A DNA stretch of 64,000 bases, taken from assembly GCF_035084215.1 (NCBI RefSeq), contig NC_090367.1:3038001-3102000 (forward strand), read 5' to 3'. Made by a program: the position numbers and the translations under genes. The notes under the pieces were generated by a model that saw only the letters and a list, made by a program, of their open reading frames with translations, ran no database searches and was not told where the DNA came from. This document shows, one piece after another, positions 13,525 through 46,686 of the stretch (positions within the stretch are counted from its first letter, which is position 1; each line of letters opens with the position of its first letter). This DNA comes from Heptranchias perlo. Lineage: Eukaryota.

Positions 13525-15310
13525 TACGGGATGATAAGGGTAACTTGTGTATAGAAGCAGAAGATGTGGGTAGGGTTTTAAATGGATATTTTGTCTCCTT
13601 ATTCATAAAGGAAAGGGATGATCCGGACATAGTAGTTAAAGAGGAGAGGTATGAAATATTGGATAAGGTAAACGTAACGAGAGAGGAAGTACTAGAGGGA
13701 CTGGAATCCTTGAAAGTTGATAAGTCACCAGGGCCGGATGGATTGTTTCCTAGGCTATTGAAGGAAGCCAGAGAGGAAATAGCGGATGCTCTGAGGATCA
13801 TTTTCCAATCCTCACTAGATACAGGGGAGGTACCGGAGGACTAGAAAACTGCAAACATAGTACCATTGTTTAAAAAGGGTACGAGGGAAAAGCCAAACAA
13901 TTATAGGTCGGTCAGTCTTACCTCGGTGGTGGGCAAACTATTAGAATCAATACTGAGAGATAGGATAAACTGTCACTTGGAAAGGCATGGTTTAATCAGG
14001 GATAGTCAGAATGGATTTGTTCAGGGAAGGTCATGCCTTACAAATCTGATTAAATTCTTTGAGGAAGTGACAAGGAGGATTGATGAAGGAGGATGGTTGC
14101 ATGTCCACATGCGTCCCGTGGATGTTGTCTACATGGATTTTAGTAAGGCATTTGACAAGGTCCCACATGGCACTGGTCAGAGAGGTAAAAGCCCATGGGG
14201 TACAGGGAAATGGATCCAAAATTGGCTCAGTAACAGGAAACAAAGGGTAAAAGTCGATGGATGTCTTTGCGAATGGAAATCCGTTTCCAGTGGTGTGCCA
14301 AAGGACTCAGTGTTGGGTCCCTTGCTGTTTGTGATATATATTAATGATTTGGACTTGAATGTAAGGGGCATGATTGGCAAATTTGCAGATGACACAAAAA
14401 TTGGCCGTGTAGTTGATAGTGAAGAGAATAGCTGTAGATTCCATGAAGATATCAATGGATTGGTGGAGTGGGCGGAAAAGTGGCAAATGGAGTTCAACCC
14501 GGAGGAGTGTGAGGCAATGCACTTAGGGAGGGCAAACAGTAAAAGGGAATACACAGTAAACGGGAATATATTGAGAGGGGTAGAGGAGGTGAGAGACCTT
14601 GGAGAGCATGTGCACAGGTCCCTGAAGGTGGCAGAACAGGTAGATAAGGTTGTGAAGAAGGCGTACGGAAGGCTTTCCGCTATTAGCCAAGGTATAGAAT
14701 ACAAAAGCAGGGAGGTAATGATGGAACTGTATAAAACGCTGGTAAGGCCACAGCTGGAGTATTGTGCACAGTTCTGGTCACCACATTACAGGAAGGATGT
14801 AATTGCTCTGGAGAGAGTGCAGAGAAGATTTACAAGAATGTTGCCAGGGCTTAAAAATTGCAGATACGAGGAAAGATCGGATAGGCTGGGGTTGTTTTCC
14901 TTGGAACAGAGGAGGCTGAGGAGTGACTTGATTGAAGTGTACAAAATTATGAGGGGCCCAGATAGAGTAGACAGGAAGTACCTGTTTCCCCTAGTGGAGA
15001 GTTCAAGAACTAGAGGACATAGATTTAAGCTGATTGGCGGAAGGATTAGAGGGGACATAAGGTGAAACTTTTTTATCCAGAGGGTGGTGGGTGTATGGAA
15101 TTCACTGCCCGAATTGGTGGTAGAGGCAGGGACCCTCAACTCTTTTAAAAAGTACATGGACCTGCACCTAAAGTGCTGTAAGCTGCAGGGCTACGGACCA
15201 GGTGCTGGAAGGTGGGATTAGAATGGACACCTGGTTGTTCTTCGAGCCGGCGCGGACACGATGGGCCGAACGGCCCCCTTCTGTGCTGTATCTTTTCAAT
15301 GGTTCTATGG
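13525..15310 (+). mobile_element. CR1 LINE, 5'-truncated, RT region with a premature stop
   Basis: ORFs 13545-13844 and 13866-15065 contain KSPGPDG, YMDFSKAFDKVPH, KFADDTK and the CR1 C-terminus; 3' UTR runs to about 15310. Confidence 0.95.
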
Positions 15311-22345: not shown

Positions 22346-22984
22346 AGATGCAAAATGTTCCATTTCACCAACACTAAAGTCCCTCGCCTTAAAAAGCACT
22401 TTTATTTTTAAATGGAACAGAGCAGTAGAATACAAATCTGGGCTATTGCCACGATACACCACATGGTGAGCTCCTAACCCTTCAACTCCTGAGCTGCCAT
22501 AGATGTCAAGCAGAGCTAAGTTGCTTCTTTACAGAAAAGGAGATGAGAAAAAGGACACAGGCTGTGTCAACCGGCTCTGCCTTGATTTGGCTCCCAGTAA
22601 TTGTTCATAAAAACAGTAGGAGAGCTCTCAGACCATGTTGCACTGGCACTTCAGTATGAGAATAGCACGTAGATTTGGGAGGAAGGAGATTTATGCCATA
22701 AGATGCAAAAATGTATTTATACATAAAATCTATTTGAAGGAAAATTATTTGCTACAAAATTTGCAGTTTTACAGCTTTCAAGAAGTGAACAGTTTTTCAC
22801 TTCACTGGCATCAGATATTTATACATCATAACAGACCTATCTTATCTAGTGAATAAACTATATCCTTTTGTTCCACACAGTTTATCCTCTAACCACATAA
22901 TACAAGTAGTAATATACTTTTTTTCTGATTCCAGGTCTTGCAATAAACCCGTCAAAACACTTTCAGAAACTGCTAGCGTTAAAA

Positions 22985-24601
22985 GTGAACTCCACATCAA
23001 TGGATATCCAACCATCTTTTAGAAAAGAAAAACTCCTTTTCAATATGAACACAACACCAGAATGTATTTTCCCCGTGCTCACCAACTGCTCTCCAGGAAA
23101 GAATCAAACGGAAGTCCAAGCAGCAGTCCATAGAGCTACGCTGGCCACCTGCATCCTACTGCTCATGCTGGTGTTCTGTCTGGGGTCCTATGGGAATTTA
23201 ATTGTCTTCTCCTCCTTCTTCAATCCAGCTTTCAGGAAATTTAGGACACATTTTGACTTCATGATCCTGAATCTGTCTTTTTGTGACCTCTTCATCTGCC
23301 TCATCTCAACCCCTATGTTTGGCTTTGTGATGTTTTTTGACAATGGGAACAGCTTGTCAGACACTTTCTGTTTCGCATTCCACCTCACCAGCACAGGATT
23401 TGTCATAATGTCTTTGAAAACAGTGGCTGTGATTGCTGTCCATCGTCTACGGATGGTGCTGGGACAACAAACTAACCACTCCTCCTCGTTTGTCTGTACA
23501 TTCCTTCTTACTATCATCTTGTGGGTCATTAGTTTCACCCTGGCCACCTTGTCAGCCATGACTAAATACCACAGCTCCAAGAACTGTGTCCCGCTGCTAG
23601 GACTCATCAATGAAGATGGCAAAGCCATTTTATACACTTACGTAGTGGACTTTACCCTCTGTGTCGGTATTGTTGCAATTTCTTATGCTATGATTGCTCA
23701 GACTCTGCACAAGAATGCACAGGTACGGCGCTGCCCTGTGATTACAGTGATTGACCCCAAAAAGCCCAACTGTTTTGTCCCTCCCGAAGTATCAGGACCC
23801 TCTTTATACAGAAAGCAGAAATGCAACAAAACACCCCATGTGCAGACACACATGTACACACACAATCAAAGTAAAAGTGCTACTACCTCCAATAAGAAGC
23901 TAGAACAGACTGTGAACCTTTCAGCTGTTAAAGACTCCAAAGCAGTAGTGACCTGTATTATGATACTACTGTCAGTGGTCTGCTGTCTGCCATTGGGTAT
24001 AGCTCTAGTGCATGATGTCTTATCTGCTCAGAGCAGTTTTATCATCTATCAGTTTGAGCTCTGTGGATTCACCTTGGTATTTTTTAGGTCCGGCCTCAAC
24101 CCATTTATCTATTCCCGTAACAACTCTGGTCTCCGCAAGAAGGTGGCTTGGTGCACACAGCTCATGGCCCTGCTGCTGTGCTGCAAGCAAAAAACAAGGT
24201 TGAAAGCAGTGGGGGACGGTAGCCTGGTTGTGAACAGGAACAAGTCTTCTCATCATGATACCAATTCGGCCTACATCCTCTCTCCCAAATCACAGAAAAA
24301 GCTTGTAGACCAGGCCTGCGGGCCAAGCAATTCGAAGGATGTCTTCACTTCTGTTGAGTACCAGCAAAAAGCACAGGCTGCCTCCACACCTATCAATACT
24401 AGGATAGAGCCTTACTACAGTATCTACAACAGCAGCATCTCCCAGGAGGACAGCACTCCTACCAGTTTGGAGCCCAAAAGGTACACATTTGGCTCTGCTC
24501 AGTCCTACACTGGAATGTATTACCACATCTCTAAAACATCAGACTTCATGCAGGACTGTGACAGCACTTCTGCCAAACAAATCCCCATTCCATCTGTCTA
24601 G
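22985..24601 (+). CDS. GPR75: GPR75-family orphan class A GPCR, single coding exon (first ATG 23000; ORF-track start is GTG 22985)
   Basis: 538-aa ORF with seven hydrophobic segments and GPR75-specific motifs [62 protein letters not shown] and terminal [10 protein letters not shown]. Splice acceptor precedes 22935. Confidence 0.95.
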
Positions 24602-27915: not shown

Positions 27916-27936
27916 ATGGAGTCAGCAGTACGTCAG
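27916..27936 (+). CDS. TOP6BL: TOP6BL exon 1 (MESAVRQ)
   Basis: Strong Kozak ataATGg; donor CAG|gtaaat; phase 0 matches exon 2. Confidence 0.8.
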
Positions 27937-28384
27937 GTAAATGGAATCAGAGTGCGTGCTGTCTCCCCCTTCAATGGGATGATAAAACCGAAAAGAAATG
28001 CACGTAGAGTGAGCCACCCAGTCATTCGGAGATTTCAAAACTGGATAGAAAAAGCCGTTTTTTTTTTCCAAAGCTGAATTGCATAAAATAAAGTGGTTCA
28101 GTCATTGCATAAGAAAATGAGCCCATTTTGCATATAGTGTTTCAAACCATTTTCAACATGTCCACAGCCTTTAAATCCCCTCGCTGCTTTTGGAGTGAGG
28201 AAAATGGTGGCCACCTTATTTGGTTGGGGGTTGGGTTGCTTTTTCCTATTTCCCATTATTGCCTTGCCTCAATGATGATGCACATGGCAAACTCATCAGG
28301 GTCTATTGGGTTTAATCCATTAATGGGTTAGTACTGTGCAACCAGCCCTTGCAGAGGTTCTGCAAGTTTATCCAATAACCAGCT

Positions 28385-28710
28385 GATCCACACATACAGG
28401 GAAGATCCCATGTTTGTATCCCCTTTGTGTTGAGTTAGCTGATCACAACCGAGAGGGCAGTAGGTGTGCTATAATTGGATTTTGTTTCCCCAAATGAGGG
28501 AGGGGAAAACTAGCAAGGTTTCCTGCTCATGATCACAACTGACTCCAATTCTGTAGAGGTTGTGTGAGGGCACAATTGGGCTTGCTTGTATGCCCATAGT
28601 GGTTGAATAGCCTGGCAATGCTCATTGTATAGGTTCACACATGAAAAACAGCCATTTAGAGGAAGTACCAGAGGGCAACCACTGTCTGTAGAGTTGTAAG
28701 GAGTCAACCT
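28385..28710 (+). mobile_element. Ancient SINE-like repeat family (other copies near 6380-6510, 35410-35740, 37470-37830, 38925-39260, 40380-40660, 57590-57870, 61330-61700)
   Basis: Recurrent tgagttagctgatc...gggttcctgctcctgatc...aatagcctg...gtaccagagg motif chain in both orientations. Confidence 0.7.
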
Positions 28711-29023
28711 ACTGACCCAGAGGCAAGAGTGCTACCAACTGAGCCAAGCTGACATCCTAAATTGATTTTGTTTCTCAATTGTTGGATGATGTATGATGCT
28801 ATCAGGGCCAGGCTAAAGAGAGGGGGAAATTCTGCTTATGATATTACATGGGCCGGGTTATCTTCCCCATTTAAAGTGGCGTTTTTTTTAAACAGCATTG
28901 CATGGCTAATTCTAGATATGAATCAACATACCTACATTGAACATAAAGTATTCAGCACAAGTCAGTCTTTAATGTTAGTCATGACCCATATCATCAGTTG
29001 GACACAGTATGTTTTGCTTCCAG

Positions 29024-29171
29024 ATTATAGAATACCTCATTGTTCATATTGAAAATGACAACAGGAGATTTAGAAGATCAGCTGAGCTGGAAGGAGATCT
29101 GCTTGTATTAGTTAATGCAGTAAACCCCACCGTGCGCTTCCACAAGGAATGTGTCTTCTGTATTGTAACAG
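29024..29171 (+). CDS. TOP6BL: TOP6BL exon 2
   Basis: ttccag|IIEYLIVHIENDNRRFRRSAELEGDLLVLV...CVFCIVT|gtaaat; aligns with recalled human ILRFLIIH...LEGQLVISI...HCVTT. Confidence 0.88.
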
Positions 29172-29311
29172 GTAAATGCACAATAACATACAAACCAGCA
29201 CTCAGATTTGATAGCAACCAAAGTGAAACGTAACATTTAATCCCATATGTGTCAAATATCAAATTGTTTTTATTCACTATGTTAATTTTCTAATGATTCC
29301 TATTTGACCAG

Positions 29312-29365
29312 TTGCAGCTGCTGGACAATGGATTTCCAACAATCAAACAGATCATTTTTACAAAG
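29312..29365 (+). CDS. TOP6BL: TOP6BL exon 3
   Basis: VAAAGQWISNNQTDHFYK; ag/gtaag boundaries; phases 1/1. Confidence 0.85.
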
Positions 29366-30101
29366 GTAAGAACTTTAAACAATAAATCTCAACGCTCCAA
29401 AATCTATTTAGTTCTAAACTGGTTCATATTCACTGCTGTCCACTTTCCTTTTAAAACATGTAAAAGCCCAGTGATTGGGAAGGCCCTGGGTTTCTGCCAG
29501 TGATGCTGCTGGTAGGGATGCAAAACTGGCCCAAGGTGGCTGGTCCTCCAATTTCACACCTCTTGGAGGAAGATTTCCTCTTTGCATCAGGTGTAGTGGA
29601 AATTGTAAATAAGGTATTTATACACAGGTTTGCAATTTTGCTACACCTTTTACACAGAGAAAAACTACCACTCCCACCCACCAAGTGGGAAAGCAGCTGG
29701 CCTCGTCTCATTATTTCTCAACAACAGTACAGAATAGATTAGTAATTCATCACTGTGTTAGTGAAGCAGAGTGGCAATATTTCCTCTTGTTACTATTTTT
29801 ACTGAAATCACAATTGCATGCGATTGGAACATTTTTACAATTTTGCTAGAAATAGCACATTATGTGGAAATACCAAAGGAAATCTGGGGTGCAAAGTAAC
29901 ATCCCACTGCTCTGTGTGCAACGCATTGGACGTCTGACAGACACCAATGTGTTTTATTTCTTGTGACATCACCCCTGTAAAGAGTACTTTATGCAAAGTG
30001 AAAACCCCTCCAGATCCTAAAACTGTTAGACTTTACAAAATAAAATGACTCTAATTGTATGTATTTGTGTTTGTTTTAGTAATTTTGATCTCTTTCTTCA
30101 G

Positions 30102-30211
30102 TAATAGAAAAGCTGTTACTCCAGCTATCCTTAAGTATGGTGCAACCAGATGCTGAAAGTGCAGATTTAAATCAAAAGTTCATCTCTTCAGAAGTCAGGC
30201 TGACATTTGAG
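30102..30211 (+). CDS. TOP6BL: TOP6BL exon 4
   Basis: tttcttcag|VIEKLLLQLSLSMVQPDAES...EVRLTFE|gtataa; phases 1/0. Confidence 0.8.
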
Positions 30212-30852
30212 GTATAAAAAGTACAGTAGATCCCCACTAGATGCCACCAACTGTTTGTTTATTACTTCTACTTGTGTTTTTAGGAGGAGGAAGAAGGACA
30301 AGCTACAAAGTAGCAAAATTCATTGCCATTTTTGTAATTATGTACGGGCTGAATATAAGTGGATATATATGTATAATAAGGGCTCCTGATGAATGGCTCA
30401 GCTGGTTATGGCAGTGAATAGTTGGGACCTTCCTGGTCTGTACGGCTGAGTACCTTGCTACTTGAACTAGCCAAGCCATTGGATAAGCTCATTTCTGTTA
30501 ATTTCTTGCAGGACCTGAAATAGCCACAGATTATATCTAACACTCCTTTATGTCATGGGCCAACTAAGTATTTTTGACAGGCTTTACATATTGTATTTGT
30601 TTATGACTTTGTAAAGTATCATAGTAATTTTTTTGTTCTGTTATTTTTCTTGGTGTATTTTCACTCAGGGCTCAAGAATAAACAGGAAAATATTGAGCAA
30701 TATGTAGGAAATGTCTAGATCATGATCATGGGGCCTCTGCTTAAAAACTTGCGGTTCCTTCTACCACGGAACTTGAATTATGAATTGTTGGTTAATCACT
30801 TTAACACAGTTTTCCTTCCCCCAAATCAATCTATTTTTTCTCTGTTAATTAG

Positions 30853-30936
30853 ACTTCTGAAAGGAGCTGCATTGTGATGACAGATTGCTTAACTATCAAG
30901 CATTTCTTACACAGAATCAGTATTGTCCATCCACAG
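30853..30936 (+). CDS. TOP6BL: TOP6BL exon 5
   Basis: TSERSCIVMTDCLTIKHFLHRISIVHPQ versus recalled human LMTDCLVIKHFLRKIIMVHPK. Confidence 0.92.
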
Positions 30937-31673
30937 GTATTGAATATGAAGGACATACCACAGCAGTTGGGTGACCTAGGAAAAATAAAACATGAAATCA
31001 TGTTAGAATATATAGCCTGTCAACTTGTTTCTTCACTTTGAGGCCAATACATTGAGCCTTCAAACATGGAATGTCAGCTGGCCAGCTGGGGATCATGAAT
31101 TACAGGGGTGGATCTGTCTGGAGTCCAGGAGGTTCAGAGGCTCAGTGGGGTGTGTCATAGTTTGTGGAAGGGTGGGGAGGAAATCGGTTGAAGCCAAGTT
31201 GAGGGTAAGTTTCTATTTTTTGTAAATTTATGTATTTGTGATAAATTTGTTTAGGTGTATATAGGGGATGGGTGAGGGCCATAGTTGCTATATCTCAAAG
31301 AATTTGTTTTTTGCTAGAATACAGTTGTTACAACATTTTCGGTTAGAAGGTGTTTGGGGACAAATTGAAAATGGAGGGAAAAGTTTTGCAAAAATGAATG
31401 GTAAATAAGAATTGTGGAAAATAACAATAACCAATTAGAAAGGTGAAAAGCACAAGAGACATAACCAATGAAGAAGAGAAGATTTTGAGCCAAATAGAAG
31501 ATAGAAAGTGACAGTCACAATGGACATAAAACAAATTTCTTACAAAAGATATACTTTCAAATATAAGTTAGATATAAGTGCAGTCCTGTTCTTTAAAATG
31601 TATTGGTTTTGAACTATATTCTTAAACAGAAATCTCTAAAAACTGTAAATAAGAAAAAAGCTTTCTCTTTTAG

Positions 31674-31729
31674 GTAAAAATCCAGTTTTATGTCAAAGTA
31701 AATGATGTTCTGTCGACTCAAATCTTTGG
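31674..31729 (+). CDS. TOP6BL: TOP6BL exon 6
   Basis: VKIQFYVKVNDVLSTQIFG versus recalled human VRFHFSVKVNGILSTEIFG; canonical splice sites. Confidence 0.92.
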
Positions 31730-32689
31730 GTAAGAATATTCACTTACTATCACATCACTAGAGCAGTGTTTGGAATATTATTTGATATTGTTTGTTATTA
31801 GTATGAAATAACTCTTTAGGATCTTGCAGTCTCACCCTTCATAAACCTTACTAATCCAGAACTCCATGATCCGTATCCTCTTCCGTACAAAAGCCTGCTC
31901 ACCATTACCCCCTGCTCTGTCAGCTCCACTGGTTCCCTATGTAAAGGCTGAAAAGTGAGCGTTACACAGTGGAGTGGATGGGGCAGAAGACGAGCAGTAA
32001 TCAAGAATTCTCCATTCTTCTAGACTAGAAGAGAACATTTCCCAAAACAGCGGGGGAGGCTATGGATGAGGATTTCGATATTGATTAGCTGGGGTATAGT
32101 GAGCTGAGAGAGCAGGGGGTGATGGTGTTCAGGCTTTTTTATGGAAGAGGACATGTATCGCAGAGTTCTGGATTAGCAAATGCTTGAGATTGTTGGAGAC
32201 TGGTGAGAAACCTATCCTCAATGCGATAAAGGTATGGATAAGTGCTTCAACAGTGACAGTGATTGGATGTGGAGTAGAGTTGTAAACGGACTATATTCTG
32301 GAGAAATAGGCCTAGAATCCCTTCCCCTCCCCCCCCCCCCCCCCCCGATTTTTCAGCAGATTTGAAGTGGACTGGGTCAGCAAATTCATGGACACAATCC
32401 ATTTTGTTGTGCAGCCCCCTTAGTTTCCCACTCCCAGGCACAGCAATGTACAGTACATTGTGGAACGTTAATACTATTGAGGGAAATACTGCTTGATTTT
32501 TCTTTTGCAGGGGAGTAAGGGAAGTAACTTGGTGTTACTTAAATTAAGGGATCATCCAGTAATTGCTGGTGGAGAGAAGTCGTCCATGGTAAATTAAGCA
32601 TACAGGACTGAATGAAGCGAGTTTGAATAACCAAATGTCCTTTTAGGAATGGAATGGGCTTAATGAGGCAAATGGCCAGACTTATGAAG

Positions 32690-32885
32690 GTAGAAAATCT
32701 GATTAATGAATTTCACATATGAATGCTTAACATGCATTTACCACATTGCTGTGTGCATTATTTGTACACAAGCATTAACCGGTTTATTTTAAATGGGTTA
32801 ATATTTGCATAAAAATAACACACACAGGAATGTGGTAAAATTACGTTAGACGTTTGTACATGAACTTTGCTGATCGAATTTCTAC
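32690..32885. mobile_element. Palindromic MITE-like element
   Basis: Ends gtagaaaatctgat...gatcgaattttctac; inner arms tttaccacattgctgtgtg / cacacaggaatgtggtaaa. Confidence 0.7.
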
Positions 32886-33144
32886 TCTATGTTCTTATAT
32901 ACAATGGTAGATACTTAGGTCTTAAACACAAAACATAATCAATGTATAGCCCAAACGGGCTGCATAAATTACAGATGAATGTGTATCTTGAGCAGCCTCT
33001 GCCTTCACAGCATTGGCATTATGTATGTACTAGATATCGCTACTTACAAAACTAAACTGGTATTTTCAGTAAAAAGCAGATGATGAATGAAACACAAATG
33101 CATAGCCTTAGTCCAAACAGTGACTAAAATGCTGTTTTTTTTAG

Positions 33145-33213
33145 GAGTGAGAAACAGGACAATTTTTGCATTAATGGACAAACTGTGCTTTCTGACAGCA
33201 CTCACTACATAAA
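33145..33213 (+). CDS. TOP6BL: TOP6BL exon 7
   Basis: SEKQDNFCINGQTVLSDSTHYI; ttag|...|gtaagt; phases 2/2. Confidence 0.85.
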
Positions 33214-33978
33214 GTAAGTGTGAAATAATTACTTATCTGGATTTTTTTTGTCCTTGGGATGTGCACAACTCTGGCAAGGCCTGTCTGTAGTTGCCCTGAG
33301 AAGCTGGTGGTGGGCCAAGTGATTGTTTTATAACTGAGTGGCTTGCTAGAGGCCTTAAGAGTCAACCACGTAGATCAGATCAGGTAGGGGTGACAGGTTC
33401 CCTTCCCTGAAGGACATCAGTGAACCAGTTGAGTTTTTATGACAATCTGTCAGCTTTCATAGTGATTTTCTTTCTGGTGCCAGCCCACAAATGCCCAGAT
33501 TTATTGAATTCATTTCACAATTTGCCACAGTGAGATGTGAACTCACGATCCCTGGGTTGCTAGTTTATTATGCATTGTGTGATGGGAGCATATGTCAGAA
33601 ATTCGAGCGGAGAAATCAGTGCACTCAATTTGGGGACCACACGATGTTACATCCATTAATTTTGATGGATCAAAAACAATGTGGGCAGCAGTCCAGCAAA
33701 TTACCTGAATTACCAAATTCCTGAAAGTCATTCCTGTCATGCAAAGTTCAGTGGCAAGAATGCTCAATCACAAAATTTACCCCCATTATCCCTCAAGCTC
33801 TTTGATGTCCAGATAGACATCTGTTTGCCTCTTGAATCTTGTATACCACCCACTGCAATGGCCTTCCCACAACTGCACCACCACCATTTTATTTTGATTA
33901 AAGAAAATTATCTTAGTAAACCCCATATATAATTCTTTTTGCAAATTATGCTATTACTTTATCTTTTTTTCTGAGCAG

Positions 33979-34171
33979 AGACTTTGGGTGTGCAGCTGAT
34001 TCACATTGCTGCAGGCTCCACCCCATTGCTGGGAAGTCTTTCCCTCTTTCCGTTCCTAACAAACTAGCAGAAGATGGAATGTGTGGAGTGCTTGAGATAT
34101 TACCAATAGCAGCTATCTGTCCTTGCCTTAAGAACTACCCCAACAAACCCACTAGAGTTTCCAGTGTATCT
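33979..34171 (+). CDS. TOP6BL: TOP6BL exon 8
   Basis: DFGCAADSHCCRLHPIAG...GVLEILPIAAICPCLKNYPNKPTRVSSVS; ends at a U12-type donor GTATCCTT. Confidence 0.88.
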
Positions 34172-34871
34172 GTATCCTTAACTGAAAGGGTATACAACAT
34201 GTGTGGGTATAAATGGGAGATGAGTTTCTCTGCTGAAGTACATACTTGTGACATGCTTCTATTAGTGTGCAATGTCCACTATATGTTATGATGGCAATGG
34301 GGGTAGATATGATCAAGCATGAGCTTTTGCACTAGCACTGGGGAAGGGTGAATCGATGTTCATTTCCTCATGAACACCAAGCAGAAGTTGGCTTTGCTTG
34401 AACAGTTTGGCATTCTGGCACTTGAACTGTGCCTTCCTTGTGAGTTTCCCTGAAATTACTATTTTCAGCAGCTCCCACTGAATTACAAAGGCATGTAAAT
34501 GAGTACCACATTAATATGAAAATTAGGATAGAATGCTGCAAATACCACTGAAACTATCATTTTGTGCTATCATAAAAGAGTTTGAACATTTTACACAACT
34601 ATGGATATTAACGGCAGTTATGGGTCAGGTGAACACCATGTTTGTGATTTAGCCATTGGATCATGGAGTAGCAGTGGTAAAGGACTATAACCTTAGTATA
34701 TAATTTTACATTTTGTGCTATTTACTATGAATGGTACGTAGTGTAGGGAAAATGATAGATAATGACATGCTGTGGATCTAGCAAATAGTTTCTACAGGTC
34801 TGTAAGAGAGGGAGGTGTATGTAGAGTTTTGATATTTGATAATAACTACAGCACTCCTTGACTTGACACAT
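34172..34871 (+). other. U12 (minor spliceosome) intron with GT-AT termini, TOP6BL intron 8
   Basis: 5' GTATCCTTA; branch site TCCTTGAC at 34855-34862; the frame-preserving, alignment-consistent acceptor 10 nt after the branch A is AT (34870-34871). Confidence 0.72.
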
Positions 34872-35019
34872 GTATTTATATATGGACCAGCTGACTTGCC
34901 TATATTGTTCAAGGATAGTAAAAATTCCTTGTCTTTCTTCATGGATCCGTCCCATCTAGCAGACTGGAAGCAATACGAACAATATCTGACTCAAAATACA
35001 GACCAAAAGACGGTAGAAG
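34872..35019 (+). CDS. TOP6BL: TOP6BL exon 9 (3' end at 35019 via a GA donor, or 35058 via a GT donor)
   Basis: VFIYGPADLPILFKDSKNSLSFFMDPSHLADWKQY versus recalled human IFLYGPLGLPLI...FFKDTSSLVDWKKY. Confidence 0.85.
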
Positions 35020-37876
35020 GAAAGTTTTTATATTGTTTACTTATTTGTTTAGTCAAAGGTGATACATTATGGTGGTTAAAGTATTGTTTATATGAGCTGC
35101 GTGGATTCTGTGAAATTTCCTTATTTGAGTTGAGGTGATTTTCTGTCACAAAACATGCAAAGTGGATAACATAGGTACAAAATCTTTCCCTTCCCACTGG
35201 GGCAGCCAAGGCACTGTGACATGGACACAAACACTAATATTACAGTAATAAAGATACTCAGAACCCTCATAATAAAAGAGACGGTAAGTCTACAGGGTTC
35301 ATACTTACCAACAGAGCAGCTGTCTAGTTATATTTTTCCAACTTTAATCATTTTCTTTGCTCTTTTCCACCAAGTTCTCCTCAACCCTCCTACTCTCCCG
35401 AAGGTGTTTTCCCCTTGCTGGGATATGGCTCCATCGGCACCCCCACCTTGCCCAAATGGCCATTCATCATCTATTACAGTGAATGTTGGACTGTTTGAGG
35501 GCTATCATGTCTAAGAATGATCCTATGCGGAACTAATCTACACATGTGCATTTCCAGCAGGGCGTCGTTAGGGAGTGATTAGGGGCAGAAATCTGGGTGA
35601 TCTTTCTCCTTCCCTCCCCCAGGAGCATTGAGGCTAATTGTAGCACCCCATTTGCTGCCAGGGCTGAAATCAGCTGACTGCACAGACCAGGGATCAAATT
35701 TGTGATGTTCCTGATCTGTATAGCTCAGTTACTCAAACAGCTAAGACAATGAGGGAGTTTTAAAAAAATCTTAAACATAAGGCACACCTCGTGTAACCTG
35801 CATTGCACTAAGAGAGTTTACAGTTTCTCTGAGGTCTAATTGTGAGTAAGCTGTCATTTTTCTCAGTCTCCACTGAATTTTTGTAAACATTTGGCAGAGA
35901 CAGAAGAAAAAAAACTAGAAGGTGCTGTGTGAGTATTTAACAGTAACAGTGGTCATTCATTGAGTTACCTTCTTTATTATCTGCACAGTAGGGAAACATT
36001 CCAGTCAATCTGTCTGTATGTTCATTTGTGACTATTTTTGCTTTATGTATAAAGTCCTTGAAATACCAACCTCATTTTTGTAGAGACTGGAGAAATAGCA
36101 GTGAAAAATACCCCAGGCTTAATTATAATTAGTGTAATTAGCATTAAAACCTCTGCCCTGCAGCTACATATCTGGCCACATAATAAGGATTCCAATTACT
36201 AGTTTGAAAAAAAATCCACACTGACAAAAATTCTTGAACTTTTTTAAATGAAATAAACAGAAGTAAAAGTACTGTCCACAGACTCAAAAGAAAGTAACCT
36301 TTTGAATATCTTATGCTCCTTTGAGAGATTTTCATCTTGAATGCTCAGTGGGTAGACTGCATGGGACTGACACACAACCTACACAATGAGCATTTATCCA
36401 ACAGACAAACAATTGAGGTGAATTATGCTGTGCAATATTAGTTTATAAGCATTTAATACCTTCATGTGAAACACCTTTGTCTGGAATTTCAATATTTGGA
36501 GGACATGGAACAGCCTGTCAGCCTATTAATCAGCCTGCAAATCCTTCCACAACTTCACACTGTTCTCCAAGGGAAGAGTGTGAAGGTATGAAAACAACAT
36601 TTGGGTTAATAACTCAGTTAAAATAATCGACAAAGGAATATCAGTATAATTTTCAACCCAAATGTCATGATTATTTTAACATTTTAGACAAAAACAGCCA
36701 CAAAGAATGTAACTCCATGTGAATTTAGACATTATCATTAATGCTAATTTTTGGTTCAACATTGAGAGCAGGAATTTTTAAACCCCTAAACAAAAATGGT
36801 TTTGCTAAAAATTGTAAAGCCCAAATTTGGCCACAATGAAAAGGAAAAAGTGTAACATGCTGGAGAGCTCAAGGCAGTATGAAGTTTAAACCACTGTATT
36901 TTATGTTTTGCTGCAATAGCTAGCCCATATTTTACATAAGGAATCTCTCGTATTGTTGCTCACGGTTAGTCAGGGTGAGAAGAGGCCAGGGAATGGATGA
37001 AGAGCAAAGTAGGGTTAAGCAATGGGGTGTAGGAGAGGTTCGCGAGTAGGTGAGTAGCGCAGTAGGTGGCAGGCAGGAGAGGCTAACAAAACAGCCTAAG
37101 AGTGGTTACAGCACTCTGGAGCAAGTAAGAGTAACAGGTGTAACTGTTACCATTGCAGTGTTGCCCACTGATTTCAAAAGTCTTACTGGGGCATTACAGA
37201 GTTACCAATTCAAAGATTTTAATTATATATAACATTATCTGGGTTTATTCAAATCTGGTTGCAATTCACGCTGTACTTACTTTCTTACAGATGCCAATCA
37301 TGTTGTATGAATTGTGTTGCAATGTTAAACTGAACCATCACATTATATGAATTTGTATAAGTTTAACCTGTCCATATGAACTGTATATATTTCTACACTG
37401 TTGCAGGTAAAGCTTGCCCTGAAAGAGTTTCCCTGATGACTCACTGAGTAAATTTGCCATATGTGTAGTGCTAAGCCACAGGATAGAAGGTCCTGGATTC
37501 ATTTCCAGACTGTGCTGAGTTAGCTGACCTCAACTTAGGAAGACGTTGGTGCACCACAATTGCTCTCAATGCCCCTGGTCAATGGAGGGGAACACTGAGC
37601 CAGGGTTCCCACTCCTAATCACTATCCAGTAACCTATGCTGGAGTGTGTGTGCGTTTGGTGAAGATAGGATCCAGCTCAAGTGTGATGTACTGTATGGTC
37701 AAAATCCTGCTAGATTCACACATGAAAAATGGCCAGTTCAGTGAAGTACCAGAGGACTGCTGGCACCACTGGAACTGTACCTCAGTAAAAGCCAACATCT
37801 GCAGGAGAGGGGGAAACAAATCAGAAAACAAATTTTAAAAGCCAATTACACTGTATACATTTGTGTTGTGTTACAG

Positions 37877-38026
37877 GATTAGCCTGTGCTGATATCAGTT
37901 ACACTGTTCAATCAATACTGGAAGATGACTGGTCTGAATGCGGCGAAGCCCAGGAGCAGATGGTGCTTCTCTTTCTTTTTATTAAATACTGGGATGAATT
38001 TCACTTGTCGCTGATGGATGTAATAG
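37877..38026 (+). CDS. TOP6BL: TOP6BL exon 10
   Basis: ttacag|GLACADISYTVQS...QEQMVLLFLFIKYWDEF...DVI|gtaatt; phases 1/1. Confidence 0.9.
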
Positions 38027-38460
38027 GTAATTTCACAAAGCCTAGTTTTTGAACTGCTTTTGGGTTTGGGTATAGGATATATTTATGTTATTGCCACATT
38101 TGTTTGTCAAGGTACACAAATGGATCCCTACTTATTTCCTATCTATTGTGCAATTGAGAGCTGACTATCCCATCGGTTCTATGGGTGCAAACTGACATTA
38201 CTGTGACTCAAACCTCTGGGTGTATGTGCAGGGTCCTATTTTGTGAGGTTTGGGGGTTTCATTTCTAAGTGAACTACTGTGAATGGGGCTCGATTATCCC
38301 TTTTTGATATTCCTTATGGCTTTATTGAGGTCATTAGTCAAGCTGGCCTTGTACTTTGCCTTTCCTTCTTGTGATTGCAGTTACGTTGATAATTGTTCTC
38401 TTTATATTTAAAAAAGCACCTTTTCTAAAAAAGAAGTGATACTGAAAGTGAAGCTCTGGG

Positions 38461-38541
38461 CTAGGTTTTACAATCGTAATGCCAATGGTATCCCATTTGT
38501 TTTAATGGATTGCCATTGGCACTACGATCGTGAAACCAAGG
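38461..38541. repeat. About 80-nt near-perfect inverted repeat (hairpin)
   Basis: 34-bp stem ggttttacaatcgtaatgccaatggtatcccatt / aatggattgccattggcactacgatcgtgaaacc. Confidence 0.85.
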
Positions 38542-38596
38542 TCTTTATAAATGAGGTGTTCATGGTAAGACTCTAATGTATTTCTCTTATTGATAG

Positions 38597-38718
38597 GAGG
38601 ACATCAAACTGTTGTTGAACATCTGGACCAGATTCTTCATTATAACAAAGATGTTGTGAGGGAATCAATTCAACCTGTGCTTCACAGAGTCCTGGATGAA
38701 TACTTCCAGTTCAAGAAG
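38597..38718 (+). CDS. TOP6BL: TOP6BL exon 11
   Basis: GGHQTVVEHLDQILHYNKDVVRESIQPVLHRVLDEYFQFKK; phases 1/0. Confidence 0.88.
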
Positions 38719-40016
38719 GTATCAGTGGCTAACTGTAAACTTATAATTGACATATAGTGCAAGTGATGAGGAGCTGTGGAATATGATTTATATCCCAATA
38801 GTGGGTTGACCTAATACTTTACAAGCAACATTGACAATGGGATATAGATCTCATCTTGCGGCTCCTGGTGATGCATTCTGTCAATATCACATTGCAATAG
38901 AAACAAAAATGATTGAATAGCCGAGCCACAAAGACCAGGAAGATCTGAGATTTAGTTCCCAGCCTATGCTGAGTTAATGATCTCGGATAAGTAAGCAATC
39001 TCTCTGGGTTAGGGAGGGGAAAGTCAGCCTGTGATTCCCTGCTTCTGATTGCTCTCCAGTGACCTCTGCTGTGAAGTGCATTTATGTAGCTATCCAGTAA
39101 GCACAGGATTAGGCTCAGTTGTGATGCCCCAATGGTTAAATAGCCTGTCAACACTCACTGATGCATGAATAATGGCAATCTCGGTAGGTACCAGAGGACC
39201 GCTGGTGGTCTTAGAACTATAACCCAGTAAGAATCAGCACGTTTAGGAGAAGAGGGAAGAAAATAGAATTTTTTTTTTAAAACACCTGATTTTCCTTTGG
39301 TTGACTTTTTATATGTACCTGTCCCTGCATACCTCCTGATGGGCATAAATTCAATAATCCTGGTAATTTGTGGGCTAGCATCTGGAAAATAACCACGAAA
39401 GCTGCTGGATCATTGTAAAAATCATTAATGTCCTTAAGGGAACCTATGACTCTCAATCTGATTTGGCCAACATGTGACTCCAGTCCCATGCTGTGTGGAT
39501 GACTCTTAATGCCATCAGGTAAACTAGGGATGGGCAATAAATACAGCCTTGCCGATGTCACCTCCTAGCCCAAAAAAATGTTTAAAAAACAATTATGGAA
39601 TACCTCCTAGCACGAAAAAAATATTTTTTTATTCGTTCATGGGATGTGGGCATCGCTGGCAAGGCCAGCATTTATTGCCCATCCCTAATTGCCCTTGAGA
39701 AGGTGGTGGTGACAACTGAGTGGCTTGTTAGGCCATTTCAGAGTTCGATTAAGAATCAACCACATTGCTGTGGAGTCACATATAGGCCAGACCGGGTAAG
39801 GACGGCAGGTTTCCTTCCCTAAAGGACATTAGTGAACCAGATGGGTTTTTACGACAATCCGGTAGTTTCATGGCCACCATTAATGATACTAGTTTTTTTA
39901 ATTCCGGATTTTATTTAATTAGTTTTATTTAATTGGATTTTACTGTCGTGATTGAGAACAGAAGGACGTTTTGTAGTTGCTGTGAACCAGCTGTTGTTTA
40001 GCTTTTTCCTCCGTAG

Positions 40017-40127
40017 AATCAGAGAAGAATGCAGTCTGCAATCCCTGTCATCTGTGATGCCATTCAGAGTATATTGTCGAGCAGTACAAATCGTGATTTT
40101 AGAACCAAGTCTCTACAACTCTTGAAG
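40017..40127 (+). CDS. TOP6BL: TOP6BL exon 12
   Basis: NQRRMQSAIPVICDAIQSILSSSTNRDFRTKSLQLLK versus recalled human AQQKLQASL...SILTGSTRSSFRKMCLQTLQ. Confidence 0.9.
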
Positions 40128-41986
40128 GTATGCACGGGAATCCGTGTTGGTGGGCAAACAACATACATAATTTAAGCAGACATGGACAGAAGGTGCTGCT
40201 GAGACAGACACCATCTGCAATGTACCAAATATGAGGGCATATCAATGTGTCATGCCATCTTCTACAAAACATAGTACCCCAATGGTTTGGTGGGGTAAGG
40301 CACTGCCACACAGACAGGTTCAATTCTTGGCACAGTCTTGATGGGCCACATGAGCTGTTTCTGTGCTGTAATATTCTATGGTCTGAGTTAGCTGATCTCA
40401 GTCATGGCATCAGTGGAGTGCTGCAACTAGCCCCAGCGACCCTAAGCTAGAGAAAAGTTGGCCAGGGTTCCCACTCCTGATCGCATTCTGTTGGAAAGTG
40501 TGGATGTGCAGAGATCAGGTGATGCCTTCTATGATCGATCAGCTCGTTGACAATCTCTTCGTAGGCTCACTAGTAAAGAATGGCTGAGGTACTGGAGTGC
40601 TGCAAACATGCATGGAACTGTACTCCAGCGTATGTCAGCACCTTCAAGAGAGATGGGGAAAGCTGATGTCACGTATTTGACTTTTCAGAGTGTGTCATGC
40701 TCACTTATTTTGTACTGTTTAAAACTCATTGTTGTCATTGCTGTCCACTTTCACCGTAAGCAGGAGAGGGGCACAGTCCAGGAACCAGACAACAGTACTG
40801 CTCCGTCAGTCAACAGAGATTTGTGCTTTTGTGGAGTGAGACTGGTCTATATCAAAATTTTACCTCCAATCCACTTTTCCTGCGGAATGCTCGATCTAGC
40901 AGCCCAAATAAGAACTAGGAATACTCAGTCTTTGGGGTCAAGTGAGATTGAATAATATTCAAGGTTGTACGATGGTTTAGAGTTGTACATTCTACTGCTA
41001 TAGGAGTCACGGCTGACTTTTTGGTGACATGTCTCCATGATGAAGATGGTTAATAAGGATATCCCAGTTAAGACTTTCTTCATCCCCATACACATAGGCT
41101 GTATATTAATGGTAATTTCACAAGTCCACATTGTCAGCAGGAGCTGAATCTACCAACAGCACATATCTGAAATTCAGGTATACATTGCCCACAATTTTCC
41201 AATCATTATGGTTAGAACATCATGGGCATTGTGCATCCAAATTTACAATATGTGCTGTCAGCAGGCAAGGCTCCCTGCTGCTAGCGTGAACTGATAAAAT
41301 TGCCCCTAATCTATTTAATGTCTCCAAGATTTTGTAAACTTTAATTTGAGGGGGTGAACTTTCCCTGTTTAGTCCCTGTTTTTCTTCCATTGGTCTTTCT
41401 GGGACACGATAGTGATCTACACAGGCCTTCACCAATGCTGCTCTGAGCCACTCGGCAGAATATGAACCAGAAAGACCCAGCACAATTCTCCTTTTGTTCT
41501 TCCTTCTCTCCCTCCCTATGGAGAAAACACCAAGCTCTGGAGATCAGGAACTGAATGCTGTGGAATATTGAACCCACACCCCATCACTACCTTGGCATTG
41601 CAAATTGATGCTTTCAATGTACTGTGGCACTCTGTTGCTTTGAAGGTATCTTTATTTTATATTTCTCCACTCCTCAATTATCTATCCTGCAGCTGGCACC
41701 ATCCTGACCACCAGGGCAGCAGATGACATTATTGTAGGCCTTTGCCAGTGCTTAATCAAACACGACAAAGCTGTGCAAGAATGGCTTGGAGTGATTCCCC
41801 TTCTGACTTACCAGTAGAACCTCTGCTAGCAGTTTTCCCACAATGGCATGGCTGACATTAGGAACTCGCTCTGTGAAGCAAAGCATTTGAGTTTCAACAT
41901 GCTACTCCACTAGCAAGTTTGCTTAGAAAATTGAAAGCCTAAATGATTACAGATGTAATTTCATTTATTTGCTATTGACTTTCTAG

Positions 41987-42085
41987 GTCTCAAACACGCA
42001 AGAGATGAAGACTTCACTTCAGAATTCTCTACAAAATGTGATCCAGAATAGATTTCTCCTGAGCAGAGGCTGTGACATGAAGCGA
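41987..42085 (+). CDS. TOP6BL: TOP6BL exon 13
   Basis: VSNTQEMKTSLQNSLQNVIQNRFLLSRGCDMKR; ttctag|...|gtatgt. Confidence 0.88.
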
Positions 42086-42500
42086 GTATGTTCTTAAATA
42101 ACTTGAGAGTTGATGATGACTGAATGATTTAGAATACTTGCTTTGCTGGATGCTTCCTGGATGTGATTGACTTTAATATAATGTGGTTCATTTTCTGTAT
42201 TTCACGATCCTTAATGAACTGGATAAACTACTCCAAAGTGATATTCTGTGACATTGTATGTATTATATGAATAAACGGAAGGGGTAATGCATGATCCTGA
42301 GAAAGCCAACAGTTTCTGTAACATTATATGTACATTTTATTCACTATTCATGCTTTATATCCTTCAGAAAAAAGTGGTTGGGGCACCCATTATTCCCCAC
42401 AAGGTAAATTCTCAATCTTACTTGGGCCATTAGGGTTGATGTTCTGATTGACGTCAAGTGATCTAGATGCACAGGATTAACATTGGTTGTCTTTTGACAG

Positions 42501-42633
42501 AAGATTCATTCAGGAGATGTTGGCCGTGTGCATTGTAACAGTGATTCAGCTAACCCAGAGACCAGCCAAGAGAATTTGCATGACATAGACTACTTCCAGA
42601 GGATCTATACAGAGCTTGCAGATCCCGAGTTAG
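42501..42633 (+). CDS. TOP6BL: TOP6BL exon 14
   Basis: cttttgacag|KIHSGDVGRVHCNSDSANPETSQE...ADPEL|gtacaa; phases 0/1 fit the neighbours; poorly conserved region. Confidence 0.7.
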
Positions 42634-43169
42634 GTACAAGGCAATCTAGCACAAACTGTCTGATCCACTCCATGCTCATCCCCATCCATGCACCATCTTT
42701 GTGTCTCCAAGATACTCCCAGTCTCTCTATTTTCGATCACCTATCTGCCTTATATTTCTCAGATCTCCCACCTCTATTTCTGAGTGAGCCCATATAACAC
42801 TGGGCTCAGTGTAGACTGTGAGCTTAAATATACAGCCTATCAATACATTATCCAGACATATAATATACCTTCAGGAAAGTTTACTGTTTTTCTTTGTTTC
42901 CCGTTCCACACCTAACAAATCTTTCTTTGCCAGCATCTTCCCCAGCCAAGAATACAGGCTGGAGACCTGCTGCAGGGTTTCTGTGAGTGTCCTTGTATAG
43001 ACAGGCATGAAGAAGTACTCAACAGTAGCCCAAAGGACAAGGGTGGGTGGGAGAAGAGATACTCCAGCTTGCTCTTCCTTTCCTGGGGGTGAGGAAGTAT
43101 TTGACATCTGTTCAGTGCTTCAGTGCTTCTATGTCTGTGTCAGATTGCTGTGATAGGAAAACTCACTAG

Positions 43170-43610
43170 GGGCAATTTTAACTTGAGGCAGAACACGCCT
43201 ACTGTCATGAGGCCTGAGCCATTGTGAGGCCTGGGTCTTATTTACATGCAGCCAGTGAGCAGGGAGCACCAAGAGGGCCACCTGCTGCAGCTCAATGATT
43301 GTAGGAGGGCTGAAGATCGGTTGGCTCTCATACTAACCGGCCGACATTTGGAGCCTGGGGTGGGAGGTCGGGGACATGGGCCTTGTGCGGATTGGAGTTT
43401 TTTCTGGGCCCAGAAAGAGCCTTACTGCTCTTCCTGGCCCCACCAAAAAAAATTTTTAAAATTCTGTGGGACATTTTCAGAGCGGCCTCCCTTGAACCTG
43501 GTTAAGCTGCTCAATGCCTAGTATAAATGGATGGAGAGTGCATGATGCATGTTCCATCCATTTGTACCTCAAAATTGCAGTTAGGATCCGATGTATGTCA
43601 TAGAACAAGT
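43170..43610. mobile_element. Non-autonomous DNA-transposon-like segment, interrupted by the following L2
   Basis: Begins ggggcaattttaac; a possible other end (cttaaaatcggcc) lies at about 45112-45123, beyond the L2. Confidence 0.4.
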
Positions 43611-45065
43611 GTGAGGAGCTCATAGACTTCATTGTCACCAAGATTGAGATCATCTGTCAGCTGCCTCTGCCACATCCCTCCTTTCTCCAAAGATTCCCCC
43701 CTGCCCTAGCCCTGAACCCGCATCTTTCTCTAGTTTCTCTCCTATCTACCCTCGTAGCCTCTCCGAACTCATCTTGTCTATGAGACCCTCATCAGTTGGC
43801 TGCCATACTAGACGGCCGACATTTGGAGCCTGGGGTGGGAGGAGGTCGGGGACATGGGCCTTGTGCAGGCCAGAGTTTTTACTGAGCCCAGAAAGACCAT
43901 TACTGCTCTTCCTGGCGCCACCAAAAAAAAATTAATAAATTCTGTGGGACATTTTGCTCTCTCGACCCCCATTCCCGCTAAACTGCAGACCACCTTGGCC
44001 CCCATGCAAGCTGATATTGTTAACAGTTCCCTCTCCTCGGGTACTGTTCCCCGTTCCTTTCAAAAGTGCTGTCATCACCCCCGCCTCAAAAAAACACACT
44101 TGACCCTTTTGTCCTTGCAAACTACCGCCCCATCTCTAACCTCCCTTTCCTCTTCAAAATCCTTGAACGTGTTCTCACCTCCTAACCCTGTGCCCATCTT
44201 TTCCGCAACTCCGTTTTGAACCTCTTCAATCAGGTTTCTACCCCTGCCACGGCACTGAAATGGCCCTAATCAACATCACAAATGATATCCTATGAATGTG
44301 GTGCACTATCCCTCCTCATCCGTCTTGACCTGTCTAGCTTTTGACATGATTGACCACACCATCCTCCTCCAATGGCTCCCCTCCGTCGTCCATCTGGGTG
44401 GGAGTGCCCTCACCTGGTTCCACTCTTACCTATCCAGTCATTGCCATGAATTCTGCAATGAATTCTCTTCCCGCCCTTGCACCATTACCTCTGGAGTCCC
44501 CCAAGGATCTATCCTCGGCCCCCTCCTATTTGCCTCTCGGCAAAATCAACCAAAAACACAATGTCAGGTTCCACATGTATACTGGCGACACCCAGCTCAC
44601 CACCACCTCTCTCGACCCCTCCACTGCCTTTGTGTTGTCAGACTGGTTGTCCGGCATCCAGTCCTGGACAAGCAGAAATTTCCTCCAATTAAACACTGAG
44701 ACGACCGAAGCCATTGTCCTTGGCCCCCACCACAAGCTCCGTTCTCCAGCCACCGATTCCATCCCCCTCCCTGGCCACTGTCTCAGGCTGCACTAGACTT
44801 TTCACAACCTCGGCATCCTATTTAACCTTGAGCTCAGCTTCCAATCCTACATCCTCTCCATCACCAAGACCGCCTTCTTCCACCTCCGTAATATCGCCTG
44901 TCTCCACCCCTGCATTAGCCCATCTGCTGCTGAAATCCTCATTCATATATTTGCTGCCTCCAGATCTGACTATTCCAGTGCTCTCTTGGCTGGCCTCCCA
45001 TCTTCCACCATCCATAAACCTAAGCTCATCTAAATCTCTGCTGCCTGGATCCTAATTTGCACCAG
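43610..45065 (+). mobile_element. L2-type LINE fragment
   Basis: AFDMIDHTILL, SGVPQGSILGPLLF, HMYTGDTQL, FLQLNTETTEAIV; frameshifted. Confidence 0.9.
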
Positions 45066-45385
45066 CATAAACAGGGTGGCAGTGTAAACAGGTTTACACT
45101 AGGCAGGGACCCTTAAAATCGGCCATACTTTGTGGAATGTCAGAGAGTCAAATCATTCCTACCAGCAGAAAAGCAGGGTTGAAAAGTGGAGATGTGGAAA
45201 TGGATTAATATTCTGAGATTTGCTTTATTACCTTTGAGGAACTTTGTCTCAGGAGATTAAATAGGTGGGATAGTTAAGTACAAAATGGGGACTGTATTTG
45301 ATGTGCTTTGTGATGTTTATGGGAGACTTGATCAGGCATTATTTGAATGCGAGTTATTTTTTATATCTAATATTGTGTTTTGCAG

Positions 45386-45762
45386 ACCCATCACTCAGAC
45401 CAGTGGATTCGGACATTCTATGTTGCAGTGATGGATCTCCACATATAACATCAGAAACTGCTTTCAGTTTTGGCAGCACTAAACAAAGAATGGACACTGG
45501 CAAAAGAAGGCTGGAAGCATGCAGAATGAAGCCCTGTGTGGATCAGTACAGTCAACCTTTCAAAAAAACAATGATTGGAGCATACAACCATCCAACTATG
45601 GAAAATATTAGCACCGACCATATCTCCTTGCTGAAAAATGATATACAGGTTTCAGCAACTGTCCCTGCAAGATCAGCATCTGAGACAACTGGCCATTTGG
45701 AGGTGCAGTGCAGTATAATGCACACTAAGCAAACGATCAATAGAAAACCAACAGAAGATCAG
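45386..45762 (+). CDS. TOP6BL: TOP6BL exon 15 (low-conservation linker)
   Basis: ttttgcag|DPSLRPVDSD...RKPTEDQ|gtttgt lies within ORF 45298-45843; phases 1/0 fit. Confidence 0.75.
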
Positions 45763-46632
45763 GTTTGTGACTATGTACAGAATTGGTATACTAGTTTATT
45801 TTTGTGGAAATTCTATATATTTTTTGCTGAACTAGGTGTCTGACAAACATGGAAATGCATCACTATATTTATGGTACTAGACTAGTAACCCAGAGGTTGA
45901 GTTCAAATCCCATCATGGCAAGTTCTGAAATTCAAATCAATAAATCTGGTAATTTGTGGGCTAGCACCAGAACAAAATGACCAGGAAAGCTGTCAGACTG
46001 TTATAGAAGTCCAACTGGTTCATTAATATTCTGCAGAGAAAGGAACCTGCCATCCCTACCTGGTATAGCCTGCACATGACTTGCCTATGGTTGACTTTTA
46101 ATGACCTCTAAAATGGCCTAGTTGTAAAAGCAGTTGCTACGAAGGCCCACTACCTTCTTGTGGCAACTAGGGAAGGACAATAAACATGGCTTCACCAGCG
46201 TCACCCACGTCTTGAAAACAAGCAACAAAGAAGTAACCACAGATTTTAGACACATGGCTGATAGGAGCCAAGATTTAGGCACTCCCATGTGTGTAGGGCT
46301 ACAGCTGGAATTTAATTGGCTAAAATCACATAGCTTACAAGCACAGAATAATTCCTGCTGATTGCCCAGCAAAGACCACCTACCCATTGGGGCACTACCT
46401 TATTGGAGCCAAATTCCCCACTGCCTCAGTGACACGTTTATGAAAATAATCTTACTTCTCTTTTATGAACTGGCGATATTAAGGCTTGAACAACTAATAG
46501 AATAAGCATGGCTTAACTTTATTCTATGGCAGGAAAGCAGAATATTAAACGTTTTTTATTAGTGATTTGGAGATTGTAGATTGGTCTTTTTGATTATGAT
46601 GACGACAATAATATTTTCATGTTCGTGTGCAG

Positions 46633-46686
46633 GAAGAATACTTGTGGCTTCAGGAAGTTTCCAACTTGTCTGATTGGACACATTGA
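46633..46686 (+). CDS. TOP6BL: TOP6BL exon 16 (C-terminal REC114-binding motif)
   Basis: EEYLWLQEVSNLSDWTH* versus recalled human EDVLWLQEVSNLSEWL. The spliced CDS totals 1929 nt = 642 aa plus stop. Confidence 0.93.
   Translation, partial: EEYLWLQEVSNLSDWTH

Follow-up and report, generated by a model that had tools for sequence, protein, structure and literature searches.

We regard it as very probable that the eighth intron of TOP6BL in Heptranchias perlo is a GT-AT intron, likely spliced by the U12-type (minor) spliceosome and orthologous to the AT-AC minor intron of the human gene, and that the intron directly after it likely has a GA donor used by the major spliceosome. An initial annotation of this DNA had proposed the U12-type GT-AT intron; this proposal is supported by the motifs, by a spliced joint in a relative and by the human orthologue, whereas the next intron, with its likely GA donor, had been missed. 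All positions are those of the window, the whole stretch of 64,000 nucleotides that was analysed. The gene and the exons that matter here are as follows.

27916 to 46686, plus strand: coding region of TOP6BL (C11orf80, DUF4554), 16 coding exons and 642 aa in an open frame, from a tblastn exon model
33979 to 34171, plus strand: coding exon 8, ending on a Ser codon in phase 0 (codon 245), covered by contig 1 of the relative X1
34872 to 35019, plus strand: coding exon 9 (148 nt), lying between the two non-canonical introns and covering PF15091 positions 132-176
37960 to 37962, plus strand: internal Met, residue 323, the start of three public isoforms matching this locus

In this model, 13 of the 15 introns have GT-AG ends, the exceptions being intron 8 (GT-AT) and intron 9 (GA-AG). 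The gene is identified as TOP6BL by its homology to DUF4554 (PF15091), which a profile search found in both exons flanking intron 8, by a genome search that returned one locus, and by an intron at the human position. Exon 9 also matches four elasmobranch proteins titled type 2 DNA topoisomerase 6 subunit B-like or DUF4554, and residues 323-642 of the model are identical to the public Heptranchias perlo protein P0010 (320/320). A PDB sequence search with the S. canicula TOP6BL protein P0003 gave 0 matches. According to abstracts of work in other organisms, TOP6BL is the partner of SPO11 in meiotic break formation, a role that would hold for sharks by analogy. Two of the public isoforms, P0019 and P0020, have 12 additional residues inserted between exons 13 and 14 (window 42086-42500), and exon 12 is skipped in P0019. 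Elsewhere in the window, a single long frame on the plus strand (22913-24598) with a rhodopsin-family 7tm_1 domain (E 5.7e-19) precedes the TOP6BL start by about 3.3 kb, and two regions of long plus-strand frames with RVT_1 domains (13845-15062 and 52186-53967) are likely LINE-type retrotransposons.

The elements of intron 8 are the following.

34172 to 34871, plus strand: intron 8, 700 nt, GT-AT ends, likely U12-type, placed by the X1 joint, by register analysis and by the human orthologue at the same codon
34172 to 34179, plus strand: U12 donor RTATCCTT, 8/8 match, directly at the end of exon 8
34289 to 34291, plus strand: first in-frame stop if intron 8 is retained, after 39 codons of read-through
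34855 to 34862, plus strand: U12 branch site TCCTTGAC, unchanged in X1, with A34861, 10 nt from the end of the intron, as the likely branch nucleotide
34870 to 34871, plus strand: non-canonical AT acceptor, from the sequence, the X1 match and register analysis

Donor, branch site and AT, all of which the initial annotation had reported at these positions, were confirmed in the sequence. The U12 donor score of intron 8 is 8/8, against 3-6 for the remaining introns among introns 2-15, and only 9 nt lie between the branch motif and the intron end. Frame analysis bears out the earlier claim that, with the phase-0 donor at 34172, the two AC dinucleotides are out of frame and the AT restores the frame: the ACs ending at 34867 and 34869 lie 6 and 8 nt past the branch A and both shift the frame, and the AT ending at 34871, 10 nt past the branch A, keeps it. 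Similarly, no AG was said to be near, and the first one past the branch A is indeed 29 nt away and frame-shifting. The claimed lack of a polypyrimidine tract is correct in that there is no long run; yet the pyrimidine share at -20..-4 is 0.65, inside the range of the gene's GT-AG introns among introns 2-15 (0.59-0.82), and so this property does not discriminate intron 8. In the whole window neither motif is enriched (donor, 5 found against 4.7 expected; branch site, 3 found against 5.0 expected), and the weight of the motifs therefore lies in their placement at both exon edges. By arithmetic from the window rates, a donor exactly at an exon end together with a branch site 10-20 nt from the next exon would occur by chance about 1.6e-8 times per intron. 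The donor region also holds a perfect branch-site motif, TCCTTAAC (window 34175-34182), overlapping +4..+11, likely a by-product of shared consensus. A search of intron 8 for AATAAA or ATTAAA found neither.

In a transcript of the relative X1, the intron is removed at these ends. X1 is one run of a related species, available as contigs rather than raw reads and with an RNA status that was guessed automatically; of the four runs compared, it alone covered exons, X2-X4 matching only repeats. X1 contig 1 follows the window from 33979 to 34170 and then from 34871 to 34900, with nothing between, so that 700 nt are skipped, and it shows 0 differences in the 30 letters past the joint and three differences near the ends of the pieces. 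Because its loose ends run on into exons 7 and 10, we take this contig as spliced RNA. The joint from 34170 to 34871 can slide, 5 letters fitting either side, which gives six registers, and a U12 donor is present in just one of them, the GT-AT register. A second, intron-side contig (34674-34900) has eight differences from the window, all before 34848 and none in 34848-34900, and the branch site and the AT end in X1 therefore match those of the window. The X1 contigs leave the first 26 nt of intron 8 and the donor of intron 9 uncovered, so the GT and GA starts are seen solely in the Heptranchias perlo assembly. Intron 8 contigs occur in X1 beside the spliced contig, and X1 has contigs in intron 9 as well; contig depth is 16.7 for the spliced and 10.6 and 5.63 for the intronic contigs, a depth that gives no retention level.

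The human intron that occupies this position (chr11:66804191-66813864 in C11orf80) is given as AT_AC in the supplement of PMC8280824, between the S-V-S and I-F codons, and the human context given in the initial annotation is thus correct. Like the human and mouse TOP6BL minor intron, the shark intron lies in the same gene at the same codon position and phase, with a U12 donor and branch site; the mouse intron, in Gm960 (Top6bl), has an AT-type donor according to the supplement of PMC6717393. Unlike the human intron, the shark intron ends in GT-AT, differing at the first and last base, and it is 700 nt long as against 9674 nt.

The first base of the intron in other vertebrates can be deduced from the codons of predicted proteins that read into intron 8. 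Of 167 proteins, 85 aligned here: 34 read I-S-F/L/C (AT start), 8 read V-S-F/L (GT start) and 43 were spliced or other. An AT start is suggested for most of the bony-fish-like matches, with sturgeon and reedfish as named cases of such read-through. The GT-start group contains three elasmobranchs, the bamboo shark (P0012), a skate (P0015) and the catshark S. torazame (P0016), and five non-elasmobranch-like proteins (P0054, P0099, P0115, P0147 and P0153), the one named being from a seahorse. These five suggest that AT-to-GT changes may have occurred repeatedly at this intron in bony vertebrates, and since V-S-x is found outside elasmobranchs and A-to-G is recurrent, the direction of change is not fixed. 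In S. torazame, exon 8 ends N-V-S and reads into the intron, and we infer that the intron of that species starts with GT and ends in AT or AC; read-through models of the other species show one intron end only. Among the 10 named proteins of the 150 matches, no read-through model came from a holocephalan, a lamprey or an invertebrate. The peptide read through intron 8 is alike in Heptranchias perlo, bamboo shark and skate for ~20 codons (window 34172-34230), for which the candidate reasons are a slow rate of change, an element within the intron or use as an alternative last exon.

The claim that TOP6BL depends on the minor spliceosome is borne out by published human and mouse work, but as a link it is not new, being present in the MIDB list, in the CENATAC and ZRSR2 data and in U11-null mouse testis. 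In the data of PMC8280824, 48 h of CENATAC depletion raises retention of the human C11orf80 intron from 0.26 to 0.66, and where ZRSR2 is mutated it goes from 0.08 to 0.31. In PMC12956336, Top6bl is one of the genes whose mis-splicing in U11-null mouse testis was validated, and Spo11 is counted as a minor-intron gene too. U12 dependence of the shark intron is likely by analogy with these cases. A preprint gives CENATAC sensitivity as 24% for G-type and 92% for A-type introns, and the shark intron, being G-type rather than A-type as in human, is predicted to be less CENATAC-dependent.

The components of the minor spliceosome are encoded in this genome, with U12 at 145 bits, U11 at 116, U6atac at 135 and U4atac at 104, all above the Rfam cut-offs. 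U6atac has three full-length high-scoring copies among 11 matches, and U11, U12 and U4atac have one match each. Predicted pairing with these snRNAs amounts to 6 bp between donor and U11, 5 bp between donor and U6atac and 9 bp between branch site and U12. The lowest-energy U12 duplex bulges G34860 and not A34861; in this model, a register with the A bulged would need a G-U pair.

On the basis of established U12 biochemistry, we propose that U11 and then U6atac would pair with the donor and U12 with the branch site, and that the 3' end would be fixed by its distance from the branch A and not by scanning for AG. G-start introns splice to G or T (PMC4176328), and GT-AC is disfavoured and branch spacing matters (PMC3584512). 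Because an intron starting with G would join a 3' G or T and disfavour C, the AT at 10 nt would be chosen over the ACs at 6 and 8 nt. The spacing of 10 nt is just under the optimum of 11-13 nt quoted in PMC3584512, where the counting convention is not given, and 1 nt longer than in the human intron. Retention of intron 8 would add the 39 codons and a stop. As both terminal bases differ, the human AT-AC and the shark GT-AT intron would be at least two single-base steps apart, most simply through AT-AT, and AT-AT introns still splice (PMC1557818). At the next intron, the GA donor would likely be tolerated because its flanking positions match U1 well.

This second odd intron is described in one line.

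35020 to 37876, plus strand: intron 9, 2857 nt, likely U2-type GA-AG, donor AAG/GAAAGT matching 7/9 positions of the U1 donor consensus

Intron 9 is likely a GA-AG intron of the major spliceosome, as judged by its sequence: a GA donor with a strong U1 match and an AG acceptor, with no canonical alternative. X1 contig 4 matches exon 9 as far as 35021 and has a loose end that is found again in exon 10, from which the junction was deduced; the GA itself is read from the Heptranchias perlo assembly. An AG acceptor is present in just one of the five registers, that of 35020-37876. An in-frame, gap-free joint was not obtained with any GT or GC donor for intron 9, and a micro-exon that would rescue either odd intron with canonical ends was found in 0 of the 3 and 4 donor-acceptor combinations. 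A GT at 35013-35014, 7 nt upstream of the GA donor, would shift the frame if used; the helper GT of the FGFR GA donors lies 6 nt upstream (PMC4176328).

GA-AG introns are known (PMC4176328), among them the U2-type cases in FGFR1, FGFR2, ITPR1, MYO18B and CAGE1, and they abound in Eurytemora and Oikopleura. AG and A are the typical flanks of a GA donor (PMC7072748), and the donor of intron 9 is flanked in the same way and otherwise matches U1 strongly. GA-AG introns are also a known cause of misannotation, as at intron 9. What sets intron 9 apart from the known cases is that it appears constitutive and comes directly after a U12 intron that is itself non-canonical. C11orf80 was absent from the human non-canonical intron list that was searched.

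Several other readings of these introns were weighed. An ordinary GT-AG intron at 34164-34851, removed by the major spliceosome with three residues becoming seven, has canonical ends, stays in frame and contains no stop, but we hold it to be highly improbable. It needs a joint from 34163 to 34852, which is not among the X1 joints, and this canonical alternative had been named in advance as what would overturn the GT-AT proposal. It would also insert 4 residues where homologues, with one exception (P0075), have none, and place the branch site within an exon; moreover, other elasmobranch proteins have Asn or Lys at the codon concerned, where GT is likely absent. The initial annotation was right in the AT-ended joint and did not list an in-frame competitor, an AT-AC intron at 34168-34867, likewise 700 nt long. 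Canonical U12 dinucleotides and a preserved frame speak for it, and so do three public elasmobranch models with V-Y ahead of exon 9, the reading expected from a shifted joint. However, its donor lacks the U12 consensus, its AC is 6 nt from the branch A, and its joint, 34167 to 34868, is not seen in X1, where the joint of a 2-nt shift (34169 to 34870) is not found either. In S. torazame, P0016 reads N-V-S into the intron, which makes a mapping shift the likely source of the V-Y in P0002; a dolphin model has this Y as well, though in human the orthologous AT-AC intron lies at the unshifted place. The Tyr of the V-Y models likely comes from a shifted joint, which would imply an intron end of AT or AC and not AG. 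We give the AT-AC intron a close to negligible probability.

It could further be argued that assembly errors or private alleles account for the odd ends and that both introns of the real gene are GT-AG. For the GA at 35020 the assembly is the sole source, in keeping with this idea, but X1 carries the same AT end, and in three other species models read into intron 9 with separate models starting before exon 10, a split that would be unlikely to arise with a GT or GC donor. We therefore find it very unlikely that both introns are in truth canonical; an error in the AT at 34870-34871 is scarcely credible, and one in the GA at 35020 is improbable, if less remote. The GT-AT minor intron followed by a GA-AG intron remains our preferred reading. 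To this reading, and not in its place, could be added the idea that both odd introns form a selected brake, holding down full-length TOP6BL outside meiosis, as opposed to tolerated drift. Both states look shared across sharks and rays as far as can be deduced, X1 contains contigs from intron 8 in addition to the spliced one, and the read-through peptide is similar in the three elasmobranchs. On the other side, contig depth gives no levels and X1 has intron 9 contigs too, and retention of the human intron is already 0.26 with AT-AC ends. Shark genomes change slowly in sequence, and the similarity within the intron may reflect merely this. Drift is favoured over a regulatory role, and the brake appears doubtful to us.

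GT-AT introns of the U12 type are a known but rare class, with 4 in human and 3 in mouse (PMC1557818) and 6 U12-type among 20 GT-AT rows in PMC4176328; those of mammals, in ADAT2/DEADC1, SLC24A6, ALG6, OCRL, CACNA2D2 and AP1M1, have the same terminal pair and type as intron 8. Both GT-AT cases in Table 3 of PMC1557818 show human-mouse conservation, and the switched orthologues there differ at one position only; the shark and human TOP6BL introns differ at two, over a far longer evolutionary distance. Switches of U12 subtype are known (PMC2831892), with general frequencies in PMC7367187. The GT-AT and GA-AG ends of shark TOP6BL appear to be unreported: searches of the literature found neither the intron ends in sharks nor the GA donor described, while supplements and online intron databases may hold them. 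The names of this gene are absent from the supplement of PMC11347168, which includes Callorhinchus milii among 263 species and whose online database may hold the chimaera orthologue; no mention of fish, sharks, introns or annotation was found in PMC9665070; and intron-level Top6bl orthologue data might lie in the supplement of PMC12956336.

Public gene models agree with the earlier expectation that automated annotation would go wrong at intron 8. Of 18 models, drawn from 11 elasmobranch species, a single one (S. canicula P0003) spans both odd introns, leaving 10 of the 11 species with no such model; the searches were word-based and length-limited, and intact models may exist beyond the 18 found. 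In three species the gene is split into an N-terminal model ending within intron 9 and a separate one for the C-terminal part that starts before exon 10, and read-through into intron 8 occurs in three public elasmobranch models. The odd introns explain why 10 of the 11 species have no complete TOP6BL model among those found.

In a broader and rather unlikely reading, elasmobranchs would have shared, since their common ancestor, a TOP6BL exon held between a GT-AT minor and a GA-AG major intron that together act as a splicing brake on meiotic break formation, with the switch from AT-AC to GT-AG halted one step short. Working intermediates of subtype switches are called rare in a review (PMC3584512), and orthologous U12 introns that differ at both ends, AT-AC in human and GT-AT in sharks, offer a natural series for such intermediates. 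In addition, the TOP6BL protein would be missed or halved in comparative studies of the meiotic break machinery, where the corrected model has 642 aa.
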